Assembly: GCA_965205265.1 (NCBI GenBank)
Contig: CBDBGH010000003.1
Coordinates: 3,040,001 to 3,104,000, forward strand
Reading direction: 5' to 3'
DNA from: Alphaproteobacteria bacterium
GTDB lineage: Bacteria > Pseudomonadota > Alphaproteobacteria > Bin95
DNA length: 64,000 nucleotides
The notes beneath the pieces are model-generated. The model had not been told where the DNA came from, searched no databases, and saw nothing but the letters and a program-made list of their open reading frames with translations. Within the stretch, counting starts at the first letter, position 1. The number at the start of each line of letters is the position of its first letter. Shown here in pieces: positions 1 to 8,755 of the stretch. The translations under genes and the position numbers were made by a program.

Positions 1-142
1 CCTTCTGCCCTTCGCTGAGCGTGGACAGCCCGGCCCTCTCGACGGCCGAGATGTGGACGAAGGCGTCGCTCGAGCCGTCTTCCGGCTCGATAAAGCCGTA
101 ACCCTTGGCGGCGTTGAACCACTTGACGGTACCGGTAGGCAT
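1..142 (-). CDS. cspA: Cold-shock protein (3' end runs off the window)
   Basis: Manual translation [47 protein letters not shown] contains RNP1 (KGYGFI) and RNP2 (AFVHIS); not in the ORF track. Confidence 0.95.
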
Positions 143-327
143 GTTCGATTTCTCCAGACGATGGAATTCCACGCATCGCAGCGCGCGACAGCGTTGTTGT
201 TTAACGGTCACATTGTTGGGGGGATGTCGGTCGGCCCGGCGAACCGGGTCCACAGAGAGCACCAGACGAATGTAACGTGCCCGTGCGGTGTGCAACCTCC
301 GGGCTGCAAAGTCAAGCCGTCTGCAGG

Positions 328-1359
328 CTACCTCCCGGCGCGCATCCCGCTAAGCGCCGCCTCCACATCGAAGGACGGGGTGCGCCCTTCCTGGGGCCGT
401 GTGCCCTCGACCGCGATTTCGGGCGCGGTCGGGCGCATCGCGTCGTTCTTCAGCCAGAGCCTGAGCAGATGGCGGCGCCACTCCGGCTCCTCCCAGTCCT
501 CGAAGGCCGTGCGGGCGTGCAGATGGGTGAAATTGTTGAACCAGAGGATCTCCCCCGGCCCGAGCGTGAACCGCAATTGCAGCTCATCGCTGCGCGCCGC
601 CGCCAGGAAGGCCTCGACGGCCTCTTCCGCAAACCCTTCGAGCGATTCCCCTTTCGCCTCCTGGCCGAGAACCGCGTAGGTCCTGACCCAACGGCAGCTG
701 ACCTTGCCTTCGATGGACGAGAAGACCGGCACCTTCCAGGGCGTGACGGGGTCCTCGCCGGGCGCCTCCTCGCCGCGCCGGTGCATGTAGAAGCCTTCGT
801 AAAGCCGTTCCAGATAGTCCGGCCTCCCGGCGAACAGCCGGTTGTGGACGGCGAGCGCGCTGGTGAGGTGCGACACGCCGCCCTTCCTTGCGACGCGCAG
901 GCTGAACAGGCCGACGACATGCGCGCGGTCCGTATGCGGGTCGAGCTCCCGGCGGTTGCGGTAGGCGCGCGCATGCGGGTCTTCGCGTGTCACGTCCCGG
1001 ACATGGCCCAGCCGGTCGCCGAGGACGCTTTGCGACATGCCGGTCCCGAGCCGCGTGCCCATCGCCCAATAGACCCGCTCCGCGTCTTCCTGCCGCCAGC
1101 GTTCGACCGGCAGGCCCGCCATCACCGCGAAGCCGCGCCCGTCCCGCAGCTCGTCGTAGAGGGCGGCGAGCCGCGCCTCGACCGACGGGCAACGGAAATC
1201 GTCCCTGCCGATGTCGTCGAGCGCCTTGCCCGCCCGGTCCATCTCCCGGATGAACCCGTCAAGCTCCGCGATCTCAGCCGCCGTCAGCCGGACCGTGTAG
1301 TCCTCCGGGCCGGCGAAATCCCCGACGGTCCAGATACCCGGGTCGTCAACGGCCTGCAT
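328..1359 (-). CDS. TauD/TfdA-family Fe(II)/2-oxoglutarate dioxygenase
   Basis: HxD (PHTD), distal His (NNFTHLHAR), RHLLRLWL; start set at MQAVDDPG. Confidence 0.88.
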
Positions 1360-1439
1360 CGGTCTCTCCCGCGATTTGCGCCCTGCATTCCACGGTCCGC
1401 CACCATACAGCAACAGACTGCGGGACGAAGCGCGGCTTG

Positions 1440-1580
1440 CTCCGCCGCGCCTGGCGCAGCACATGACGCGGCGCGAATTCGTCCATGAACACGAATGGCG
1501 GCGCGGCGATATCGCGCTCTGGGACAATGCCCGCGTGCTGCACCGCCGCGAGCCGTTCGATCCCGCCCCGCCGCGCGCAG
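1440..1580 (+). pseudogene. C-terminal remnant of a TauD-type dioxygenase
   Basis: HEWRRGDIALWDNARVLHRREPFDP matches the TauD W..GD...WDN...H motif; no N-terminal part present. Confidence 0.65.
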
Positions 1581-1594
1581 CGGGCCCACGCTCC

Positions 1595-2068
1595 TCAGCC
1601 TTCCGACGGCCCCCACCAGGCGGCGCCCACGATTTCTGCGTCGGGATCGTCCCTCCCGGTCTCGAACGTAAGCCGGACCCGGCATCCGGACCTGCCGACG
1701 ACCAGACGCGGCCGGTTCTCCGGACCGATCAGAAGGCCCCGCTCGGGGTCATAGGAAAAGCCCGTTTCCGGTTCGACGCCGCCCCATCGCATCAGGGCCG
1801 CGAAGCCGCCTCCCGCATAGCCGTCGATCAGCAGATAGAGCGACTCTTCTGCAGGGCTGCCGTAGCCGAGCACAACGGTGCTTCCATCCGACACGCGCAC
1901 GGCGACGATCTCATCGAGTGCCACCGTGCCGCGCGACTCCGGACCCGCATACACGCTTTTGCGGGAAAGGACCGTCACTACCGGCAGAAGCGGAGTCCTG
2001 TTCCCGGAACGCCGCTCAACTTCCGCGGAGCGTTCGGGAACCGGTCGCCTACATCCTTGCCGGATCAA
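1595..2068 (-). CDS. Hypothetical protein, unassigned domain, copy 1 (no HTH)
   Basis: TTG start preceded by AGGAGA; shares PVV..., DE(I/M).AVR.SDG..(L/I)GY..EE and Y.P..GL.IGPE motifs with 2429..3160. Confidence 0.6.
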   Translation of the reverse strand: MIRQGCRRPVPERSAEVERRSGNRTPLLPVVTVLSRKSVYAGPESRGTVALDEIVAVRVSDGSTVVLGYGSPAEESLYLLIDGYAGGGFAALMRWGGVEPETGFSYDPERGLLIGPENRPRLVVGRSGCRVRLTFETGRDDPDAEIVGAAWWGPSEG

Positions 2069-2242
2069 GCGGATCTCTCCTATTCTCCTGCCGCCGAACC
2101 GCGAGGCGTGTCCTCGCGGGATGCCCGGCAGGCTGACGGAGCTGCACCGCCGACCGCCTCTTCAGGCGGGACAACGGGAGTGAGGATCATGCAGCTCCGC
2201 CAGCCATGCGGGCCAATATGGGCCGGCGAATTCCGGATGGCC

Positions 2243-2304
2243 ATAAAGTTTGCTTCAGTTCAGGAATTTATTTTTGGCGAAATATAAAGTTTTCTTCACT
2301 TTCA
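2243..2304. promoter_or_regulatory. AT-rich direct-repeat pair, candidate operator
   Basis: ATAAAGTTTGCTTCA at 2243 and ATAAAGTTTTCTTCA at 2284 (14/15 identical, 41 bp apart), upstream of copy 1. Confidence 0.45.
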
Positions 2305-2428
2305 ATTTGTGCAGTCTATTTCCCGACCCCATTCGCACGGTCATTTCCCGATCCGATCAACGGGCGCTATGTCCGCGAGGCCCGCTGCGAGACGATATGC
2401 ATGCCATAAAGCGGTGAGCACATGATGC

Positions 2429-3160
2429 TCAACCTTCTTCCTCTTGCCCTGTCACTGAGTAAACATAGGCCTGTTTAGCCGCTCTCTCATTTCTCTCCTT
2501 CAGGTATTCAAGCCGTATGCGGGTTCCGGAAGCCACGACCAAAAGCTGTGTCTGCCCCTCGGGGCCGATTCGCAGTCCCACCCCGGGCTGGTAAACGATC
2601 CTCGCTGTCTTCGCATCGACTTTGCCCCACTTCAACAGCTTGTGTATGTCGCCCCCGAGCCACCTTTCAGCCAGCCTGATGAGCGCGTATTCCTCTACTG
2701 GCGAATAACCGATGGGAATGTTCTCGCCGTCCGAAAGACGGACTGCCATGATTTCATCCATCTCTACCGAATCCAATTCTCTAGGTCCGTCGATCAGAAG
2801 GTCAACCGTAATTACAACCGGAACGCCGACATATCGGTCCTCTTCGTATTCACCTTCGTTCGCTTCTCCGGGAACGTCTTCCAGAAGATCGCTGACCTCC
2901 ACTCCCATGCCGACGGCAATGAAGCGAGCGGTTTTCGGGTCTACGTTTCCACCGTTGTTCTCGATCTTGCTGAGCGTAGCCATTGAAATCGGGTCGGGGT
3001 TGCCGTGTTTCATTCGGTCCCTGACCCATTCGATCATGGGCTTGTCATCCGAGTTCAGGACGTTGTCGATCAACTCCTTTATGAATTGCGGTTGGGTCAG
3101 GGCCATGGATTTTCGACGTTCGCGTACCATGTTCCCGCGTAGCATAAAGGACCTGGACAT
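2429..3160 (-). CDS. XRE-type HTH regulator fused to the unassigned domain (copy 2)
   Basis: RERRKSMALTQ ... ISMATLSKIENN ... IAVGMGVEVSDLL is an HTH_XRE-like pattern with an insertion; visibly lower GC than the flanks. Confidence 0.7.
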   Translation of the reverse strand: MSRSFMLRGNMVRERRKSMALTQPQFIKELIDNVLNSDDKPMIEWVRDRMKHGNPDPISMATLSKIENNGGNVDPKTARFIAVGMGVEVSDLLEDVPGEANEGEYEEDRYVGVPVVITVDLLIDGPRELDSVEMDEIMAVRLSDGENIPIGYSPVEEYALIRLAERWLGGDIHKLLKWGKVDAKTARIVYQPGVGLRIGPEGQTQLLVVASGTRIRLEYLKERNERAAKQAYVYSVTGQEEEG

Positions 3161-3410
3161 TTCTCTTCCTCCTCGAAGTGAGTGGCGTTACCGTCCTATA
3201 TGTTGACCGGCAGTCCCTATGGCGGGCGAGACAGCCGGAAGAGGCCCGACCCGCTGTCCGGCGTCACCGGCCGGAGGCAGGGCCGTTGGGTTCGCACGAG
3301 GCAGCCTCCTTCCTTCCGATGGTGCGCAGTACGACGCGGAATCGTCGTTTTACGGCACCGGTCCGGGCAAGCTACCCAAATCGCCGGTCGTGACAAAGGG
3401 ACGATTCTGG

Positions 3411-3867
3411 TCACAACTGCGTGAGTAAATTTGCAGACAATTGACGGTTTCTTGAATGCCCCGCTCGGGGATCGTACGAAAATCCCGTTTCCGGCTCGAC
3501 GCCGCCCCGGCGCATCAATGCCGCGAACCCGCCGCCCGCATAGCCGTCGATCAGGCAGATAGAACGCCTCTTCTTCAACGCCCCCGTAGCCGAGTATCGG
3601 CGCGCTCCCGTCCGACTGGCGGACGGCGACCATCTCGTCGAGCGCGACCGTGGCGCGCTCGCCGGGGCCGCCATGGATGAATTTGCAGGAAAGCACTATC
3701 GCCACCGGCAGAAGTGCAACTCCCTCCTTTGGCGCAATCGGCGCTTCTTCGGAACGCCGCAGCCGTCCCCTTGAGCTTCCGGGAAAGCGGCGCGGAGTCC
3801 GCTGCCGTAACGGGCGAGTCTCCTGCGTTCCCTCGCTGTCCGACCGCATGGCGCGCCCTTCGTGCAT
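3411..3867 (-). pseudogene. Frameshifted copy 3 of the unassigned domain
   Basis: TVALDEMVAVRQSDGSAPILGY in one frame and LIDGYAGGGFAALMRRGGVEPETGFSYDP in another; clear nucleotide similarity of 3458-3715 to 1737-1990; extra G near 3554. Confidence 0.7.
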
Positions 3868-4344
3868 TGTTTCCGGGCTGGAGGAGCGGCCCGAACAACC
3901 GGCTCATCACGTCCGGCGGTCGGGGGAGGGCCGTGCGCTCCTCCAGCTATGGACTCAATTCTATCAACAACTCCCATGCAGCGAGCAAGCTGCCATAATC
4001 CCTTATATTTCTTGGAAATTATGGTTCCCAGCAGCGATAGCCCGGACGCCTCGCGCACAATTTCCCCGGTCCGGGAGACCATTCTCCGGGTATCGGAAAA
4101 GTAAACCTACTTCCAAAAAGTTCGGACCGGAGGGAGCCTGTCGCAAAACTACCGCTGCCGGGAACGACGATTACGTCAATCGGGAATTTTTGGTGGCGCG
4201 AAACGGTTTTCCGCATGGCCATTTGTCGCGCGGGTCGAAATATGTGTCAGGGAAATACGGCCGAGCGTCCTTCCTGCGGCGGACGCAAGAGAGGTCCCGC
4301 AGGCGCTTGTGGGAGGGGCCAGACGGTGTAGGATTCCTGCCGTC

Positions 4345-5172
4345 ATGCGCAGCGATGTGGCCGAGCTTCACGCCTTCTATGACGGGCCGCTCGGGCGGGC
4401 GGCGGGGCTTGTGCTGGCTGAGCGCGTGCGACGGCGCTGGCCTTCGCTCGGCGGGATGCAGGTGCTGGGCCTCGGCTATGCGCCGCCCCTGCTCGACGGG
4501 CTCGGCGACGGGAGCGCGCATGTGCTGGCGGCCATGCCGGCGGGACAGGGCGCGCTTCGCTGGCCGGCGGAGGGCCGGTGCCGGACGGTGCTGACGGAAG
4601 AGGACGCACTGCCCTTCCCCGACCTCGCCTTCGACCGCGTGCTGCTCGCCCACGATGTCGAGACCTCGGACCATCTGGCGGGGCGGCTCCGCGAGGTCTG
4701 GCGCATCCTGGCGGCGGAGGGCCGGCTGATGGTCATCGCGCCGAGCCGCCGCGGCCTCTGGGCGCGCTTCGAACACACGCCCTTCGGCCACGGCCGGCCC
4801 TGGTCCCGCTCGCAACTGGAGCGGCTGCTGCGCGAGGCGATGTTCGAGCCGCTCGGCAGCGAGGAGGCGCTGTTCGCCCCGCCGCTCCGCCGGCTGGTGC
4901 GGCCGGGCGCGGCGGAGGCGTGGGAGCGGTTCGGGCGGCGCTGCCTGCCGGTATTCGGCGGGGTGGTAATTGCCGAGGCGGCGAAGCGGCTCGCGGGGGT
5001 CACGCCGCTTCCCGTGCGGTCGCGCCGGTCGTTGCTCCAGGGGGTGCTGAGTCCGCAGGCTACGCCGCAGCCGAGCGGCGCTCCTCGCTGCGGGCCGCCT
5101 CCCAGCCGATCAGCGCCGCCTTGCGGGCCAGCCCCCACTCGTAATTGTGGAGATAGCCGTTCGCGAGGATGA
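4345..5172 (+). CDS. Class I SAM-dependent methyltransferase (type 11)
   Basis: MRSDVAELHAFY start, VLGLGYA, LPFPDLAFDRVLLAH, TPFGHGRPWS; conserved alphaproteobacterial family. Confidence 0.85.
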   Translation: MRSDVAELHAFYDGPLGRAAGLVLAERVRRRWPSLGGMQVLGLGYAPPLLDGLGDGSAHVLAAMPAGQGALRWPAEGRCRTVLTEEDALPFPDLAFDRVLLAHDVETSDHLAGRLREVWRILAAEGRLMVIAPSRRGLWARFEHTPFGHGRPWSRSQLERLLREAMFEPLGSEEALFAPPLRRLVRPGAAEAWERFGRRCLPVFGGVVIAEAAKRLAGVTPLPVRSRRSLLQGVLSPQATPQPSGAPRCGPPPSRSAPPCGPAPTRNCGDSRSRG

Positions 5173-5905
5173 CCCGGTGGCAGGGCACGAGCCAGGAGAC
5201 CGGGTTGCGGCCGATGGCGGCGCCGACCGCCCGCGCCGCGCGCGGCGCGCCGACCGCCGCCGCCACATCGCCATAGGTCGCGAGCGCGCCCGGCGGAATG
5301 CGCAAGAGCGCGTCCCAGACGCGGATCTGGAAGTTGGTGCCGTGCAGGGTGAGCGGCAGCGGCGGCGCGGCGGCCTTGGGCTCGAATATGCGCCCGGCGA
5401 GCGCGGCGGTCTCGTCCGGCGCCTCCGTGAAGGCCGCGGCCGGCCAGCGCCGGCGCATGTTGTCGAGCCCCGCCCGCTCTTCTCCCTCGGCGGCGAAGGC
5501 GAGCCCGCAGATGCCCCGGTCGGTCGCCATCAGCAGGCAGCGGCCGAAGGGGGAATCGTGGATGCCGTAGCGGATGGCGAGGCCCGCGCCGCGCCGCTTG
5601 TAGTCGCCGGGGGTGACGGCCTCGTGGGTGACGAACAAATCGTGCAGCCGGCCGGGGCCGGAGAGGCCGGCGTCCCAGGAGGCCTCCAGCACGCTGGCGT
5701 TCTCCGCCAGGCTGGCCTTGGCGCGCTCCAGGGTCAGATATTGCAGGAACTTCGTCGGGCTGATACCGACCCAGCGGCGGAAGGTGCGCTGGAAATGGTG
5801 CGGGCTCATGCAGGCGGCGGCAGCCATCTCGTCGAGCCCCGGCTGGTCGGCCTGGTTCTCGGCGATCATGACGAGCGCGGCTTCGATGCGGGAATAGAGG
5901 CTCAT
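5060..5905 (-). CDS. AraC-HTH / methylated-DNA-protein-cysteine methyltransferase (Ada-like)
   Basis: SPHHFQRTFRRWVGISP AraC motif and PCHRV active site. Confidence 0.92.
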   Translation of the reverse strand: MSLYSRIEAALVMIAENQADQPGLDEMAAAACMSPHHFQRTFRRWVGISPTKFLQYLTLERAKASLAENASVLEASWDAGLSGPGRLHDLFVTHEAVTPGDYKRRGAGLAIRYGIHDSPFGRCLLMATDRGICGLAFAAEGEERAGLDNMRRRWPAAAFTEAPDETAALAGRIFEPKAAAPPLPLTLHGTNFQIRVWDALLRIPPGALATYGDVAAAVGAPRAARAVGAAIGRNPVSWLVPCHRVILANGYLHNYEWGLARKAALIGWEAARSEERRSAAA

Positions 5906-6026
5906 GGGCTTGGGTCTCCTTGCCGGGTCTCGGAGGCAAAGCTAGGATCGCCCGCGCGCGTCCGCCACCCGATGCTTGCGCATTTTGGCCCGCGCCTCCA
6001 GCGGCGGCAAAGGCTGCCCCACCCGC

Positions 6027-6054
6027 TTGATTGCATCGCAATCGACCCTAGAAT
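6027..6054 (+). promoter_or_regulatory. Candidate sigma70 promoter with overlapping inverted-repeat operator for the TA operon
   Basis: TTGATT-N16-TAGAAT; GATTGC-atc-GCAATC at 6029-6043. Confidence 0.5.
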
Positions 6055-6085
6055 GGTCTTCACCGGCGAACGGAGCACGGGACCT

Positions 6086-6328
6086 GTGGCCAGCATCACG
6101 ATCCGCAACCTCGACGACGATGTGAAGACCCGCCTGCGGGTGCGCGCGGCGGACAACGGGCGGTCCATGGAAGAGGAGGCGCGGCTCATCCTGCGCGACG
6201 CCGTCGGGCGCAAGACCCCTCCCCGGAATCTCGCGAGCGCGATTCGCGCGCGGATCGCGCCTCTCGGCGGCGTGGACCTGGAATTGCCGCCGCGCGGGCC
6301 CGGGCGCGAACCGCCGTCCTTCGATTGA
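6086..6328 (+). CDS. FitA/StbC-like ribbon-helix-helix antitoxin
   Basis: (M)ASITIRNLDDDVKTRLRVRAADNGRSMEEEARLIL, directly upstream of a PIN toxin. Confidence 0.92.
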   Translation: MASITIRNLDDDVKTRLRVRAADNGRSMEEEARLILRDAVGRKTPPRNLASAIRARIAPLGGVDLELPPRGPGREPPSFD

Positions 6329-6338
6329 GGCGGCGGCG

Positions 6339-6761
6339 GTGTTCCTGCTGGACACGAACATAATATCCGAACTCCTGCGTCCGTCGCCCGACCCGGCTGT
6401 CGAAACCTGGGTCGGTGACCACCGGGCAACGGACCTGTATTTCTCGGCAATCGGCGAGGCGGAGTTGCGTTACGGCGTTGCCGTTCTGCCGGCCGGGCAG
6501 CGGCAGGCCGCGCTTGCCTCCGCCATCGAGGCAATCCTGCAAGAGGACTTTATAGACCGGGTTCTCCCGTTCGACCGCGAGGCGGCGCGGGACTATGCGG
6601 ACATAGCCGCCATGCGCCGCGCCGCCGGCCGCACCGTGCTGCCGGCCGACAGCCAGATCGCGGCGATCGCGCGTTCCCGCGGGATGGCCGTGGCGACGCG
6701 CAACGTCCGGGACTTCGAGCACATCGGCATCGAGGTCATCGACCCCTGGACGGCGGCATGA
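6339..6761 (+). CDS. vapC: VapC/FitB PIN-domain toxin
   Basis: LLDTNIISE, AELRYG, DSQIAAIA, TRNVRDF. Confidence 0.95.
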   Translation: MFLLDTNIISELLRPSPDPAVETWVGDHRATDLYFSAIGEAELRYGVAVLPAGQRQAALASAIEAILQEDFIDRVLPFDREAARDYADIAAMRRAAGRTVLPADSQIAAIARSRGMAVATRNVRDFEHIGIEVIDPWTAA

Positions 6762-6791
6762 GCGGCGCGCCGTCGAAGGGCGCGGGCTGAC

Positions 6792-7679
6792 ATGCGCCTC
6801 ACTCTGCTCGGCACCGGCACGCCGGCGCCCTCGCTGAGGCGCATGGGCTCGGGCTATCTGGTCGAGACCGGCGGCGACACCATCGTCTTCGACCACGGGC
6901 CCGGCGCGCATCACCGGCTGCTGGAGGCGGGCCGGCGCGCGGTCGATGTCACCCACTGCTTCCTCACCCACCTGCATTACGACCACTGCATGGACTATGC
7001 GCGGCTCGTGATGAACCGCTGGGACCAGGGCGCGGGCGAGCTCGGCGAGCTGCAGGTGTTCGGACCGCCGCCGACGGCGCGTATGACCGGTCTCCTGTTC
7101 TCGCCGGAGGGGGTTTACGGCCCCGATATCGAGGCGCGCACCCGCCATCGCTGCAGCCTCGACGTGTACGAAGCGCGCGGCGGTGCCGGCGAGCGCGCCC
7201 GGCCCGACCCGCAGGTGCGCGAGGTCGGCCCGGGCGATGTCGTGGAGGGGAAGGACTGGCGCGTCACGGTGGGCGAGGGCTGGCATTTCCAGCCATACCT
7301 GCAATGCCTCGCCTACCGCATCGACACGGATGCGGGCTCGATCTGCTATTCCGGCGACAGCGGCGGCGTGTGCCCCGACATTATCGAATTGGCGCGGGGC
7401 GCGGATGTGCTGATCCACATGAACCATTTCTTCACCGGCACCGAGCCGTCGCCGGAATACCGCCGCGCCTGCGGCAACCATAGGGACACGGCCGAGGTGG
7501 CGGCCGAGGCGGGCGTGGCGACCCTGGTGCTGACGCATATCACGAGCCAGATCGACACGCCCGTCATGCGCTCGCGCATCTTGCGCGAGATGGCGCCGGT
7601 TTTCGGCGGCGACATCGTCTGGGGCGAGGACCTGATGGAGGTCCCGGTCCGGCAGGCAGACATCGGGCGGATCGACTGA
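6792..7679 (+). CDS. MBL-fold metallo-hydrolase (RNase Z/AtsA-like)
   Basis: LLGTG, THLHYDH (HxHxDH), YSGDS, LVLTH. Confidence 0.88.
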   Translation: MRLTLLGTGTPAPSLRRMGSGYLVETGGDTIVFDHGPGAHHRLLEAGRRAVDVTHCFLTHLHYDHCMDYARLVMNRWDQGAGELGELQVFGPPPTARMTGLLFSPEGVYGPDIEARTRHRCSLDVYEARGGAGERARPDPQVREVGPGDVVEGKDWRVTVGEGWHFQPYLQCLAYRIDTDAGSICYSGDSGGVCPDIIELARGADVLIHMNHFFTGTEPSPEYRRACGNHRDTAEVAAEAGVATLVLTHITSQIDTPVMRSRILREMAPVFGGDIVWGEDLMEVPVRQADIGRID

Positions 7680-7699
7680 CGGGTCGGGAAGGCGGAACG

Positions 7700-8755
7700 A
7701 TGAACGATATCCTGAATGCCGGGCCGGCTCCGGTGGAGACGCCGCAATGCTGGCGCGGCCCCGACATGGCGCGGCGGCCGGAACTCTGGACGCATGAGCT
7801 CGCGCCGGAAGAGGTCGCGGAGATCGAAGCGGCGGCCGCGCGCCTCGACGAGGTGCCCATTCTGGAGATCGTCCGCGACCCCCTGCCGAAACTGTCCGGG
7901 CGGCTGGGCCGCATCCGCGAGGAGGTGCTGCACGGCATCGGCTTCCAGGTGATCCGGGGGCTGCCGGTCGGGCGCTGGCCGCTCAGGCGCGCGGCGGCAG
8001 CCTTCTGGCTCATCGGCCTGCATCTGGGCGAGGCGGTCTCGCAGAACGGCAAGGGCCATGTGCTGGGCCATGTCCGCGACCTCGGCCTCGACTACAGCCT
8101 GGCGGAGACGCGCGGATACCAGACGAATGCGCGCCTGCCCTACCACACCGACCAGTCGGACCTCGCCTGCCTGCTCTGCCTGCGCACCGCGCGCGAAGGG
8201 GGGCTGTCCTCGCTGGTGAGCTCGGTCACAGTCTGGAACGAGATGGTCCGCCGCCGCCCGGACCTGGCGGACGCGCTCTGCCGGCCCGTCGCCCGCACGC
8301 GCTGGGGCGAGGTGCCGGAAGGCAGGAAGCCCTGGGCGGATGTTCCGGTGTTCGTGCCCTGGCGGGGCAATGTGGTCACGACCTACACGCGCAGCGCCGT
8401 GGAGAAGGCCCGCGCCATGCCCGGCCCGCCGGAGCCGGACGCGCTCCAGGCGCAAGCGATGGACATGATCGACGCGCTCGCCGCCGACCCGGCGTTGCAT
8501 CTCGACATGGCGCTGGAGGAAGGCGACATCCAGATCGTCTCCAACCACCGCATCCTGCATTCGCGCACCTCCTATGTGGACTGGGAGGACCCGGCCAGGA
8601 AGCGCCACATGCTGCGCCTCTGGCTCGCCTGCGCGGACGGGCCGGACCTGCCGCCGCTGATGACGGAGGAATACCAGGAGGCGACCGCGTCCGGCCGGCC
8701 GAACGGCATTCGCGTGCCGGGCGTGCCGCTGTCGGCGCCTCTTTCTGCCAATTAG
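7700..8755 (+). CDS. TauD/TfdA-family dioxygenase
   Basis: YHTD, NHRILHSRT, RHMLRLWL; paralogue of 328..1359. Confidence 0.88.
   Translation: MNDILNAGPAPVETPQCWRGPDMARRPELWTHELAPEEVAEIEAAAARLDEVPILEIVRDPLPKLSGRLGRIREEVLHGIGFQVIRGLPVGRWPLRRAAAAFWLIGLHLGEAVSQNGKGHVLGHVRDLGLDYSLAETRGYQTNARLPYHTDQSDLACLLCLRTAREGGLSSLVSSVTVWNEMVRRRPDLADALCRPVARTRWGEVPEGRKPWADVPVFVPWRGNVVTTYTRSAVEKARAMPGPPEPDALQAQAMDMIDALAADPALHLDMALEEGDIQIVSNHRILHSRTSYVDWEDPARKRHMLRLWLACADGPDLPPLMTEEYQEATASGRPNGIRVPGVPLSAPLSAN

Follow-up and report, generated by a model that had tools for sequence, protein, structure and literature searches.

The window analysed here is a stretch of 64,000 nucleotides (nt) from an Alphaproteobacteria bacterium of the lineage Bin95 (assembly GCA_965205265.1, contig CBDBGH010000003.1, positions 3,040,001 to 3,104,000). 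Towards its beginning, the minus strand carries three co-oriented genes, called here copy 1, copy 2 and copy 3, that have in common a domain of about 125 amino acids (aa). This shared region is a previously unassigned domain, predicted to be alpha/beta. Copy 2 carries it behind an XRE-type helix-turn-helix (HTH), copy 1 encodes it without any HTH, and copy 3 is a pseudogene. The reading put forward here, whose chances of being right or wrong we judge to be evenly balanced, is that a rare family of regulators dimerises through this new domain and that the HTH-deleted paralogue serves as dominant-negative partner of the HTH-bearing one.

An initial annotation, based on the sequence alone, had described at this place three co-oriented open reading frames (ORFs) with a common domain, two of them without HTH. 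The relationship is borne out by protein comparison, copies 1 and 2 sharing 42 of 113 residues (37%, E=1e-21) and copy 1 matching the two frames of copy 3 over 33/53 residues (62%, E=6e-18) and 29/32 residues (91%, E=8e-19). As had also been noticed, the outer copies are similar as DNA: copies 1 and 3 can be aligned across about 390 nt, including about 100 nt upstream of the coding region, and in the corresponding repeat families, 160 nt are 73% identical and 87 nt are 87% identical. Copies 1 and 2 are separated by 360 nt. The G+C content over copy 2 is 0.49-0.56 (300-nt windows, 2251 to 3150) while it is 0.64-0.72 over copy 1 and near 0.70 in the surroundings. Copy 1 starts with a TTG codon preceded by GGAGAG 6 nt upstream, and its product consists of a disordered, arginine-rich N-terminal remnant followed by the C-terminal domain.

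The frameshift reported for copy 3 turned out to be worse than described. Copy 3 is covered by the ORF 3217..3867 and by a shifted frame, 3411..3674, both on the minus strand, and its start at 3849 was placed by homology to the MRS... starts of related short forms of 176 aa. One surplus C is found at 3554/3555 and one surplus T at 3471. Homology with copy 1 runs out at 3454, near the equivalent of residue 112 in copy 1, so that the final three strands of the domain are missing. These two 1-nt insertions and the early end of the homology identify copy 3 as a truncated pseudogene. The breaks are not an assembly slip, since contigs of three sequencing runs from three studies reproduce 1500-4300 without any difference or indel; runs X1 and X4 span this region in one piece and X5 in parts, and X1 may be the source. 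Pieces of the same region (3419-3879 and 4000-4300) were also found, with 2 and 3 differences, in contigs of run X6, which is labelled as a sponge metagenome. One X6 contig ends loose at 3879, which suggests that some near relative may be arranged differently upstream of copy 3.

The domain has no counterpart in family libraries, and the initial annotation had likewise been unable to assign it to a family. It is without match in Pfam, NCBIfam, PADLOC and PHROGs, and it is absent from the PDB as well; the accompanying literature search covered analogues only, not the domain itself. In particular, copy 1 and both frames of copy 3 have no Pfam match at E<=1, and PADLOC finds no family in copy 1 or copy 2. 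When 1.84 billion representative proteins were searched exhaustively with a profile, only 17 matched at E<=1e-3, each of them a cluster representative, and 13 of these reach E<=1e-10. A word-index search led from copy 2 to 2 proteins, one of which is copy 2 itself, and from copy 1 to 11; the same search with alignment A3, in which 8000 candidates were scored, added nothing. At the level of whole genomes, the domain is carried by 4 of the 16 genus-mates and by 0 of the 20 genomes of two sister genera, and no further copy was found in the genome searched here (G000). In a sample of 400 genomes of the class only the HTH part found matches, and a sample of the phylum gave 0/400. No match came from scans of viral contigs (alignment A2) or of metagenome contigs (alignments A8 and A2), and the scan of genome contigs with A2 returned only the four genus-mates, plus a chance match (L017) to an unrelated protein. 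The domain is thus very rare.

This isolation extends to predicted structures. The model of copy 2 has a mean predicted local distance difference test score (pLDDT) of 87.3 (92-98 for aa 11-90), with a five-helix HTH at aa 6-100 whose helices are interrupted by an insert, a linker of low confidence at aa 99-105 and a C-terminal domain that runs as helix, two long strands, two helices, three strands and helix. The core of the copy 1 model reaches pLDDT 92-97. Compared with the PDB by Foldseek, the copy 1 model has a best E of 0.35; in BFVD the best E is 7.5e-3, with a TM score of 0.23. VIA-align, used all-against-all on 48,161 chains, gave a best Z of 3.8 and no chain at Z>=5, and a second look gave 4 of 997 chains at Z>=2, with a best of 2.7. 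As the note accompanying this tool indicates that models without clear match usually reach Z 7-8, the copy 1 model appears unusually isolated. A missing fold match is nevertheless no proof of a new fold, the underlying alignment having 23 rows and the monomer being possibly incomplete without its partner. Topologies of the PAS/LOV or Roadblock/LC7 type stood low in the Foldseek list and were dropped, none of them being at Z 2 in the second look. The domain is isolated in both sequence and model space.

The HTH is limited to copy 2, the lower-G+C gene, as first proposed. Its N-terminal domain is predicted to adopt the five-helix fold of lambda-repressor-like proteins, although Pfam HTH_3 (PF01381) matches only aa 58-92, restricted to profile positions 21-55, at E=0.0037 and 17.7 bits, below the curated cut-off of 23 bits. 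In NCBIfam, a HipB-like HTH trace is the only match (12.8 bits for a cut-off of 71.65). Structure comparison is more telling: in the wide VIA-align search, residues 6-105 match XRE-type HTH structures, with 59 chains at Z>=5. The best 50 of these 59 chains (Z 8.0-5.3) are nearly all XRE-type HTH and lie within residues 1-118. The top match is the TP901-1 repressor CI (6tri_A, Z 8.0, root-mean-square deviation (rmsd) 3.0, 74 residues aligned), with further matches to SinR (1b0n_A, Z 7.2, rmsd 3.5, 66 residues aligned), DdrO (Z 7.2), P22 c2 (Z 7.1) and CapH (Z 7.1), and Foldseek adds C.AhdI and HipB, both at probability 0.99. A profile search of PDB sequences matched the HTH part alone, with weak E-values apart from two rows of dTor designed repeat proteins on the HTH/insert region (E=7e-11 and 3e-08), which were taken as composition artefacts.

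The architecture of the relatives places the domain consistently in regulators. In all 13 full-length proteins among the 17 representative matches, the domain lies behind a DNA-binding domain; copy 2 (P0001) is the thirteenth of them. Seven of these relatives align as HTH forms: P0014, P0016, P0017, P0021 and P0023 match Pfam HTH_3 (P0021 at 24.2 bits), P0018 matches HTH_28, and P0019 has no Pfam match and weak PHROG regulator matches. P0022 and P0024-P0027 match instead the winged helix of OmpR type, Trans_reg_C. Furthermore, the domain is present twice in 4/4 long proteins (512-600 aa), which can thus be described as a fused pair of winged-helix-plus-domain units, as expected from a domain that works in pairs. 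Outside short forms and fragments restricted to the genus, the domain was seen only in fusion with DNA-binding domains. The earlier suggestion of a regulator accompanied by stand-alone copies of a domain is upheld to this extent, the domain being C-terminal in DNA-binding regulators and copy 1 being a maintained gene without HTH.

The pairing of copies 1 and 2 was examined by modelling of their complex, as the initial annotation had proposed. Residues 106-243 of copy 2 and 26-157 of copy 1 are predicted to associate with a score of 0.78 (0.77, 0.78 and 0.78 in the runs), while the best of 3 controls reached 0.00. The pLDDT of the partners is at least 78 and the contacts agree between runs at 74% or more. 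Of 157 solved complexes, 116 attain the mark set by the tool, as do 2 of 215 mismatched pairs, rates that are approximate here since custom alignments were used; the tool itself presents a pass as support for binding and not as demonstration. The modelled contacts consist of two antiparallel strand pairings through the conserved end strands of the domain. One joins copy 2 residues 107-119 to copy 1 residues 26-36 through the conserved N-terminal 'PVPV/LPVV' strand, and the other joins copy 2 residues 211-224 to copy 1 residues 127-140 through the last strand, 'SG.R.RL.F'. As 38 interface positions are equivalent on both chains, this near-symmetric arrangement is in effect a homodimer mode. Together, the complex model and the natural double-unit proteins give fair support to a domain that works in pairs, and weaker support to copies 1 and 2 as this particular mixed pair.

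The history of the short forms remains legible. HTH-less forms are confined to the clade of this genus, and those of 176 aa follow P0010 and P0011, which are HTH forms of 238 aa, over the first 36 or so residues and then lack the HTH helices, which makes them internal-deletion derivatives. In the domain tree, two clades are seen: type B comprises copy 2, two genes of genus-mate G005 and one copy of G004, and type A comprises all the short forms together with the HTH-bearing P0007, P0010 and P0011. This indicates, as far as alignment and tree can tell, that copy 1 descends from a paralogous HTH-fused gene of type A by internal deletion of the HTH helices. As the tree does not resolve the inside of type A, a single deletion event cannot be claimed for the short forms. 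The stand-alone copies had been presented as copies of the regulator's own domain; deriving from type A, they are not copies of the domain of copy 2, which is of type B. As copy 3 is dead, there is moreover one working stand-alone copy, the intact copy 1, and not two.

As judged from its sequence, copy 1 is a maintained working gene and not debris. The C-terminal domain of the short gene is under purifying selection in 10/10 pairs of 5 species, with ratios of nonsynonymous to synonymous divergence (dN/dS) of 0.28-0.44 at dS 0.43-0.68 (Fisher p 1.9e-7 to 7.6e-4; simple Nei-Gojobori count, pairs not independent); for copy 1 and its orthologue in genus-mate G013, dN/dS is 0.33. For the N-terminal remnant of the short forms, evolution can mostly not be told from neutral, 6/10 pairs being not significant, in a comparison that has few sites and is noisy.

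All the loci of the family are found at one site, between a gene of the TauD family and a methyltransferase gene. Read from the methyltransferase side to the TauD side, the site holds a dead short copy, an HTH-fused gene and a short gene in G000; a VapBC-like pair, an HTH-fused gene and a short gene in G013; two HTH-fused genes and a short gene in G005; a contig edge, a copy whose HTH part is unreadable and a short gene in G004; and a short gene alone in G003. The short gene is thus the constant member, present in 5/5 genomes that hold the family, and an HTH-fused paralogue stands directly before a co-oriented short gene in 3/5. The arrangement of fused and unfused copies, which a survey of neighbourhoods had been suggested to reveal, does recur in the genus-mates G013 and G005. 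With a domain that remains unassigned and an arrangement that recurs, neither a known domain with a known role nor a one-off duplication was encountered. In the genus-mates that lack the family, the gap at this site is only about 750-1000 bp. The common site and these small gaps mark the cassette as a unit gained and lost at a hot spot, with the short gene as constant member. The gap of G011 holds just a VapBC-like pair (L030 917-1497), and the pair of G013 lies at L009 2647-3377; in G000, another such pair (a small antitoxin-like ORF and a PIN-like ORF) is found 2 kb further on, at 6100-6761 on the plus strand. These VapBC-like names come from reading the ORFs, without family scan. In G004, the ORF at L006 140-568 encodes a type-B C-terminal domain, and its HTH part is interrupted by stops at the contig edge; it may be either another HTH-less derivative or a pseudogene.

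Comparison of G000 with G013 (2060-2845 against L009) reveals a mosaic. The C-terminal domains of copy 2 are 96.4% identical (dS 0.107) and the spacers between copies 2 and 1 are 94% identical, while the flanking core genes are at 86-91%, the HTH part at 76.8% (dS 0.43, dN/dS 0.55) and copy 1 at 82.8%. This could be due to recombination within the cassette or to a strong constraint on the spacer.

Each short copy, even the dead copy 3, is preceded by a hairpin of about 85 nt. Its consensus fold (alignment A9) contains 29 pairs, 9 of which show compensatory double changes; 0/500 shuffles reach the observed covariation, and slid controls are paired at 26-53% as compared with 87%. Folded singly, hairpin 1 has a minimum free energy of -65.4 kcal/mol (z -6.5), hairpin 2 has a z of -3.9 and the others have z values of -3.6, -4.0 and, for G003, -0.25. 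Hairpin 2 matches the covariance model at E=4.3e-13. Across 17 genomes of the genus, with 150 candidates scored per genome, this model found six hairpin sites only, all upstream of short copies; these six sites are also its training set. No credible Rfam family was found in 1400-4400. The hairpin may be a new cis-regulatory leader, one that would control the short gene. A small ORF overlying it (2080..2244, minus strand) was rejected as a gene, a 4-nt indel shifting its frame in G013. A reading of the hairpin as an integron attC site was dropped, no attC-like core sites being apparent. In the ORF lists of 1-8000 and of the related loci read, which were not scanned for families, no integrase ORF was seen.

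The AT-rich spacer between copies 2 and 1 contains a direct repeat of 15 nt, at 2243-2257 and 2284-2298 with a spacing of 41 nt, and another pair of repeats at 2318-2332 and 2343-2357 (repeat families D3 and D8). The 15-mer has no other occurrence in the 5.7-Mb genome at <=2 mismatches, and an 11-mer of it recurs in the matching spacer of G005. These repeats may be the operator of the HTH paralogue, and the fact that they are unique in the genome fits a self-contained circuit. A scan for promoters and terminators gave nothing above shuffled expectation. Table 1 gathers the positions of these elements.

Table 1. Elements of the cassette, its flanks and the hairpins of related loci
Element	Position	Strand	Description
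TauD-family gene	328-1527 (327-1372 as flank of the site)	-	PF02668, E=2.7e-27
Copy 1	1595..2068	-	intact HTH-less short paralogue, 157 aa; from the ORF list
Leader hairpin 1	2120..2216	-	upstream of copy 1; inverted repeat I1; about 85 nt, long stem and inner hairpin
AT-rich promoter-like stretch	2225..2360	-	between copy 2 and copy 1; candidate operators
Copy 2	2429..3160	-	243 aa; XRE-type HTH aa 6-100, linker, C-terminal domain aa 107-241; lower G+C
Copy 3	3454..3849	-	truncated pseudogene of the 176-aa short type; two 1-nt insertions
Leader hairpin 2	3866..3959	-	upstream of copy 3; inverted repeat I13, 12/12 complementary
Methyltransferase gene	from 4344		other flank of the cassette
Hairpin, related locus L013	5857-5953
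Hairpin, related locus L014	5800-5891
Hairpin, related locus L015	928-1022
Hairpin, related locus L016	5779-5875

Two other genes were noted beyond the methyltransferase flank. The ORF at 5060-5905 (minus strand) looks, from the ORF list, like an Ada-type AraC HTH fused to a methylated-DNA methyltransferase. A second paralogue of the TauD/TfdA dioxygenase family may be encoded at 7700-8755 (plus strand), as judged by similarity of the ORF translation only, so that two such paralogues would flank the region.

These elements can be assembled into the following mechanism. The domain would be the C-terminal pairing (dimerisation) module of very rare one-component transcription regulators, and copy 2 would be such a regulator, most likely binding DNA as a dimer held by the two antiparallel strand pairings. 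Copy 1 remains a functional gene, served by an AT-rich promoter-like region of its own and by the conserved structured leader, and its product would pair with the HTH-bearing paralogue through the same interface. Since the mixed dimer would have one DNA-reading head only, copy 1 would act as a dominant-negative tuner or anti-regulator. Copy 3 is what is left of another, now dead, short copy, and the array as a whole is a small cassette, gained and lost at a hot spot that two core genes enclose. The data show homology, rarity, domain architecture, purifying selection, synteny and the pseudogene status of copy 3; dimer and mixed dimer are model predictions only, and the dominant-negative action and the operator role of the repeats are inferred. 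A bolder version is also conceivable, although it must be called tentative and somewhat doubtful: a new fold with strand-swapped dimers would define a new rare family of one-component regulators, with XRE or OmpR heads and fused double units, and in one alphaproteobacterial genus an HTH-deleted paralogue with its RNA leader would have been retained across speciation as the invariable centre of a very small mobile cassette, itself a self-contained regulator/anti-regulator switch, possibly addiction-like or defence-sensing, that targets itself only.

Several observations weigh against the dimerisation reading. The complex model cannot separate dimerisation of the domain from pairing of these two paralogues, since the same family alignment was used for both chains and the mode is near-symmetric. 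The interface is not better conserved between copies 1 and 2 (15/50 positions identical) than the rest of the domain (28/75, p=0.45), and the two copies belong to different subclades, types A and B. As no fold relative was found, the pairing role relies on models built from only 23 sequences. In the alignment of these sequences, the charged and aromatic residues that vary little or not at all (Glu, Arg, Asp, Tyr, Trp, Ser, Arg) could equally mark a ligand-binding or catalytic site. No target gene is known for the regulator, and the repeat motif of the spacer is only partly kept in G005 and not evident in G004. Lastly, G003 (97% complete, 730 contigs) has the short copy only, an HTH-fused relative not having been found in its assembly, which means that the proposed partner is not needed for the short protein to persist. 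The role of decoy or anti-repressor first imagined for the short copies is thus favoured by the modelled pairing of copies 1 and 2 and weakened, as an obligate role, by the solitary gene of G003.

The main rival to the dimerisation reading gives the short copies a job of their own, for example as a homodimer that binds a small molecule or a protein but not DNA and does not act on the HTH paralogue, the adjacency of the genes being due to duplication history. We consider it unlikely, while recognizing that G003, with its short gene alone, is its strongest support. The presence of the short gene in 5/5 genomes, its own promoter-like region and dedicated conserved leader and the purifying selection that it undergoes all agree with such a job, as do the mere 37% identity between the type-A domain of the short copy and the type-B domain of copy 2 and the lack of extra conservation at the interface. 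It accounts less well for the position of the short gene, directly behind a co-oriented HTH-fused paralogue in 3/5 genomes, for the complex model, which supports pairing, and for a domain that, genus-restricted short forms and fragments apart, was only ever seen fused to DNA-binding domains. A toxin-antitoxin-like, addiction or defence cassette, in which the HTH-fused protein would be an autoregulating neutraliser and the short protein an effector held via the shared domain, seems improbable. The site is indeed a hot spot with VapBC-type pairs in G011 and G013, the cassette is patchy (4/16 genus-mates) and of lower G+C, and it consists of paralogues and control regions and nothing else, with a candidate operator unique to it. 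However, no PADLOC model matches the domain, the sub-threshold HipB-like trace in NCBIfam being the nearest approach to a type II toxin-antitoxin or defence family; the survival of the short gene alone in G003 is unexpected of a toxin; a short copy homologous to its supposed neutraliser would be an unusual toxin-antitoxin design; and no enzymatic or membrane feature was seen.

It is very improbable that the array is a one-off decaying duplication, made of a regulator gene and non-functional remnants. In its favour stand the genuine pseudogene, copy 3, the N-terminal remnant in the short forms, which can mostly not be told from neutral, and the further copy in G004 with an HTH part that can no longer be read; yet copy 1 and its orthologues have stayed intact across 5 species at the dN/dS and dS values given above, and the short genes keep a ribosome-binding site and the conserved leader. 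Least credible of all is a divergent C-terminal domain of S24 (LexA/CI) or phage 186 CI type, which would make these proteins self-cleaving or wheel-forming repressors. The motif resemblance to S24 noticed in the initial annotation was echoed by language-model look-alikes of copy 2 residues 105-243, namely Phage_CI_C clusters at 0.87 and 0.86 and a cluster with 16% of Peptidase_S24 members at 0.85, but such scores are reached by a third of shuffled proteins, with 85-99 of 256 features shared, and the look-alikes of copy 1 (0.79) are unnamed clusters only. For Phage_CI_C (PF16452) in particular, the score of 0.87 with 85/256 features is in the chance range, and no row for it occurs among the listed VIA-align matches. 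There is no S24 entry among the best 50 VIA-align rows for the copy 1 model (best Z 3.8), although a match may still lie outside these rows. Pfam gives no S24 match (PF00717) at E<=1, HTH_3 being the only family matched by copy 2, and the predicted fold (beta-beta-alpha-alpha-beta-beta-beta) is mixed and not all-beta. The near-invariant columns of the 23-sequence alignment hold one Ser (S211) and no Lys, in keeping with the earlier remark that a catalytic Ser/Lys pair is not evident. The S24 resemblance is thus not supported.

The nearest analogue of the proposed couple is SinR/SinI (and SlrR/SlrA) from Bacillus subtilis. SinI is encoded next to sinR in the same orientation, is homologous to the oligomerisation region of SinR, binds it and blocks its tetramerisation, which prevents productive oligomers on DNA (PMC3917956). 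Here also, an XRE-type HTH regulator adjoins a co-oriented small homologue of its C-terminal region (37%, E=1e-21), and this recurs in G013 and G005. However, the interaction region of SinR/SinI is made of helical hooks whereas the domain described here, of about 125 aa, is alpha/beta and predicted to pair via strands; the short gene lies downstream and not upstream, and arose by HTH deletion from a full-length paralogue; and there is no sequence relation outside the HTH. This is thus an analogue and not a member of the same family.

Truncated paralogues without DNA-binding domain are also described for two other Alphaproteobacteria: TrlR of Agrobacterium forms inactive heterodimers with TraR (PMC13043044), and CerN of Cereibacter, which has no HTH, antagonises CerM (PMC11655674). 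TraR/TrlR and CerM/CerN are of LuxR type, with an N-terminal autoinducer-binding domain, a C-terminal HTH and a known ligand. In the present family, by contrast, the DNA-binding domain is N-terminal (XRE or OmpR), the retained domain is another one and no ligand is known. The layout of copy 2 is shared with the repressors TP901-1 CI, P22 c2, 434/lambda CI, DdrO and CapH: five HTH helices at the N-terminus, a flexible linker and, at the C-terminus, a domain for self-association, which is a prediction in copy 2. However, the C-terminal domain of copy 2 matches none of theirs, and the cassette has no partner protease, no MOR-type antirepressor and no prophage context. As for Peptidase S24/LexA-CI, the likeness is limited to the position behind the HTH and a loose motif resemblance, while the profile match is lacking, the Ser/Lys pair is absent from the conserved columns and the predicted fold is mixed alpha/beta.

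The system is small, being composed of two proteins, one spacer and one hairpin, and its distribution is very narrow, being limited to one genus and a few metagenomic proteins. If the dimerisation reading is correct, it would nevertheless provide a new protein domain without detectable fold relative, fit for naming and for inclusion in family databases, together with short forms whose deletion history can still be read in their sequences and a dedicated structured leader that may control the antagonist. It would also show, as a natural case maintained by evolution, that paralogues deprived of their HTH serve in regulation beyond the families of LuxR and SinR.

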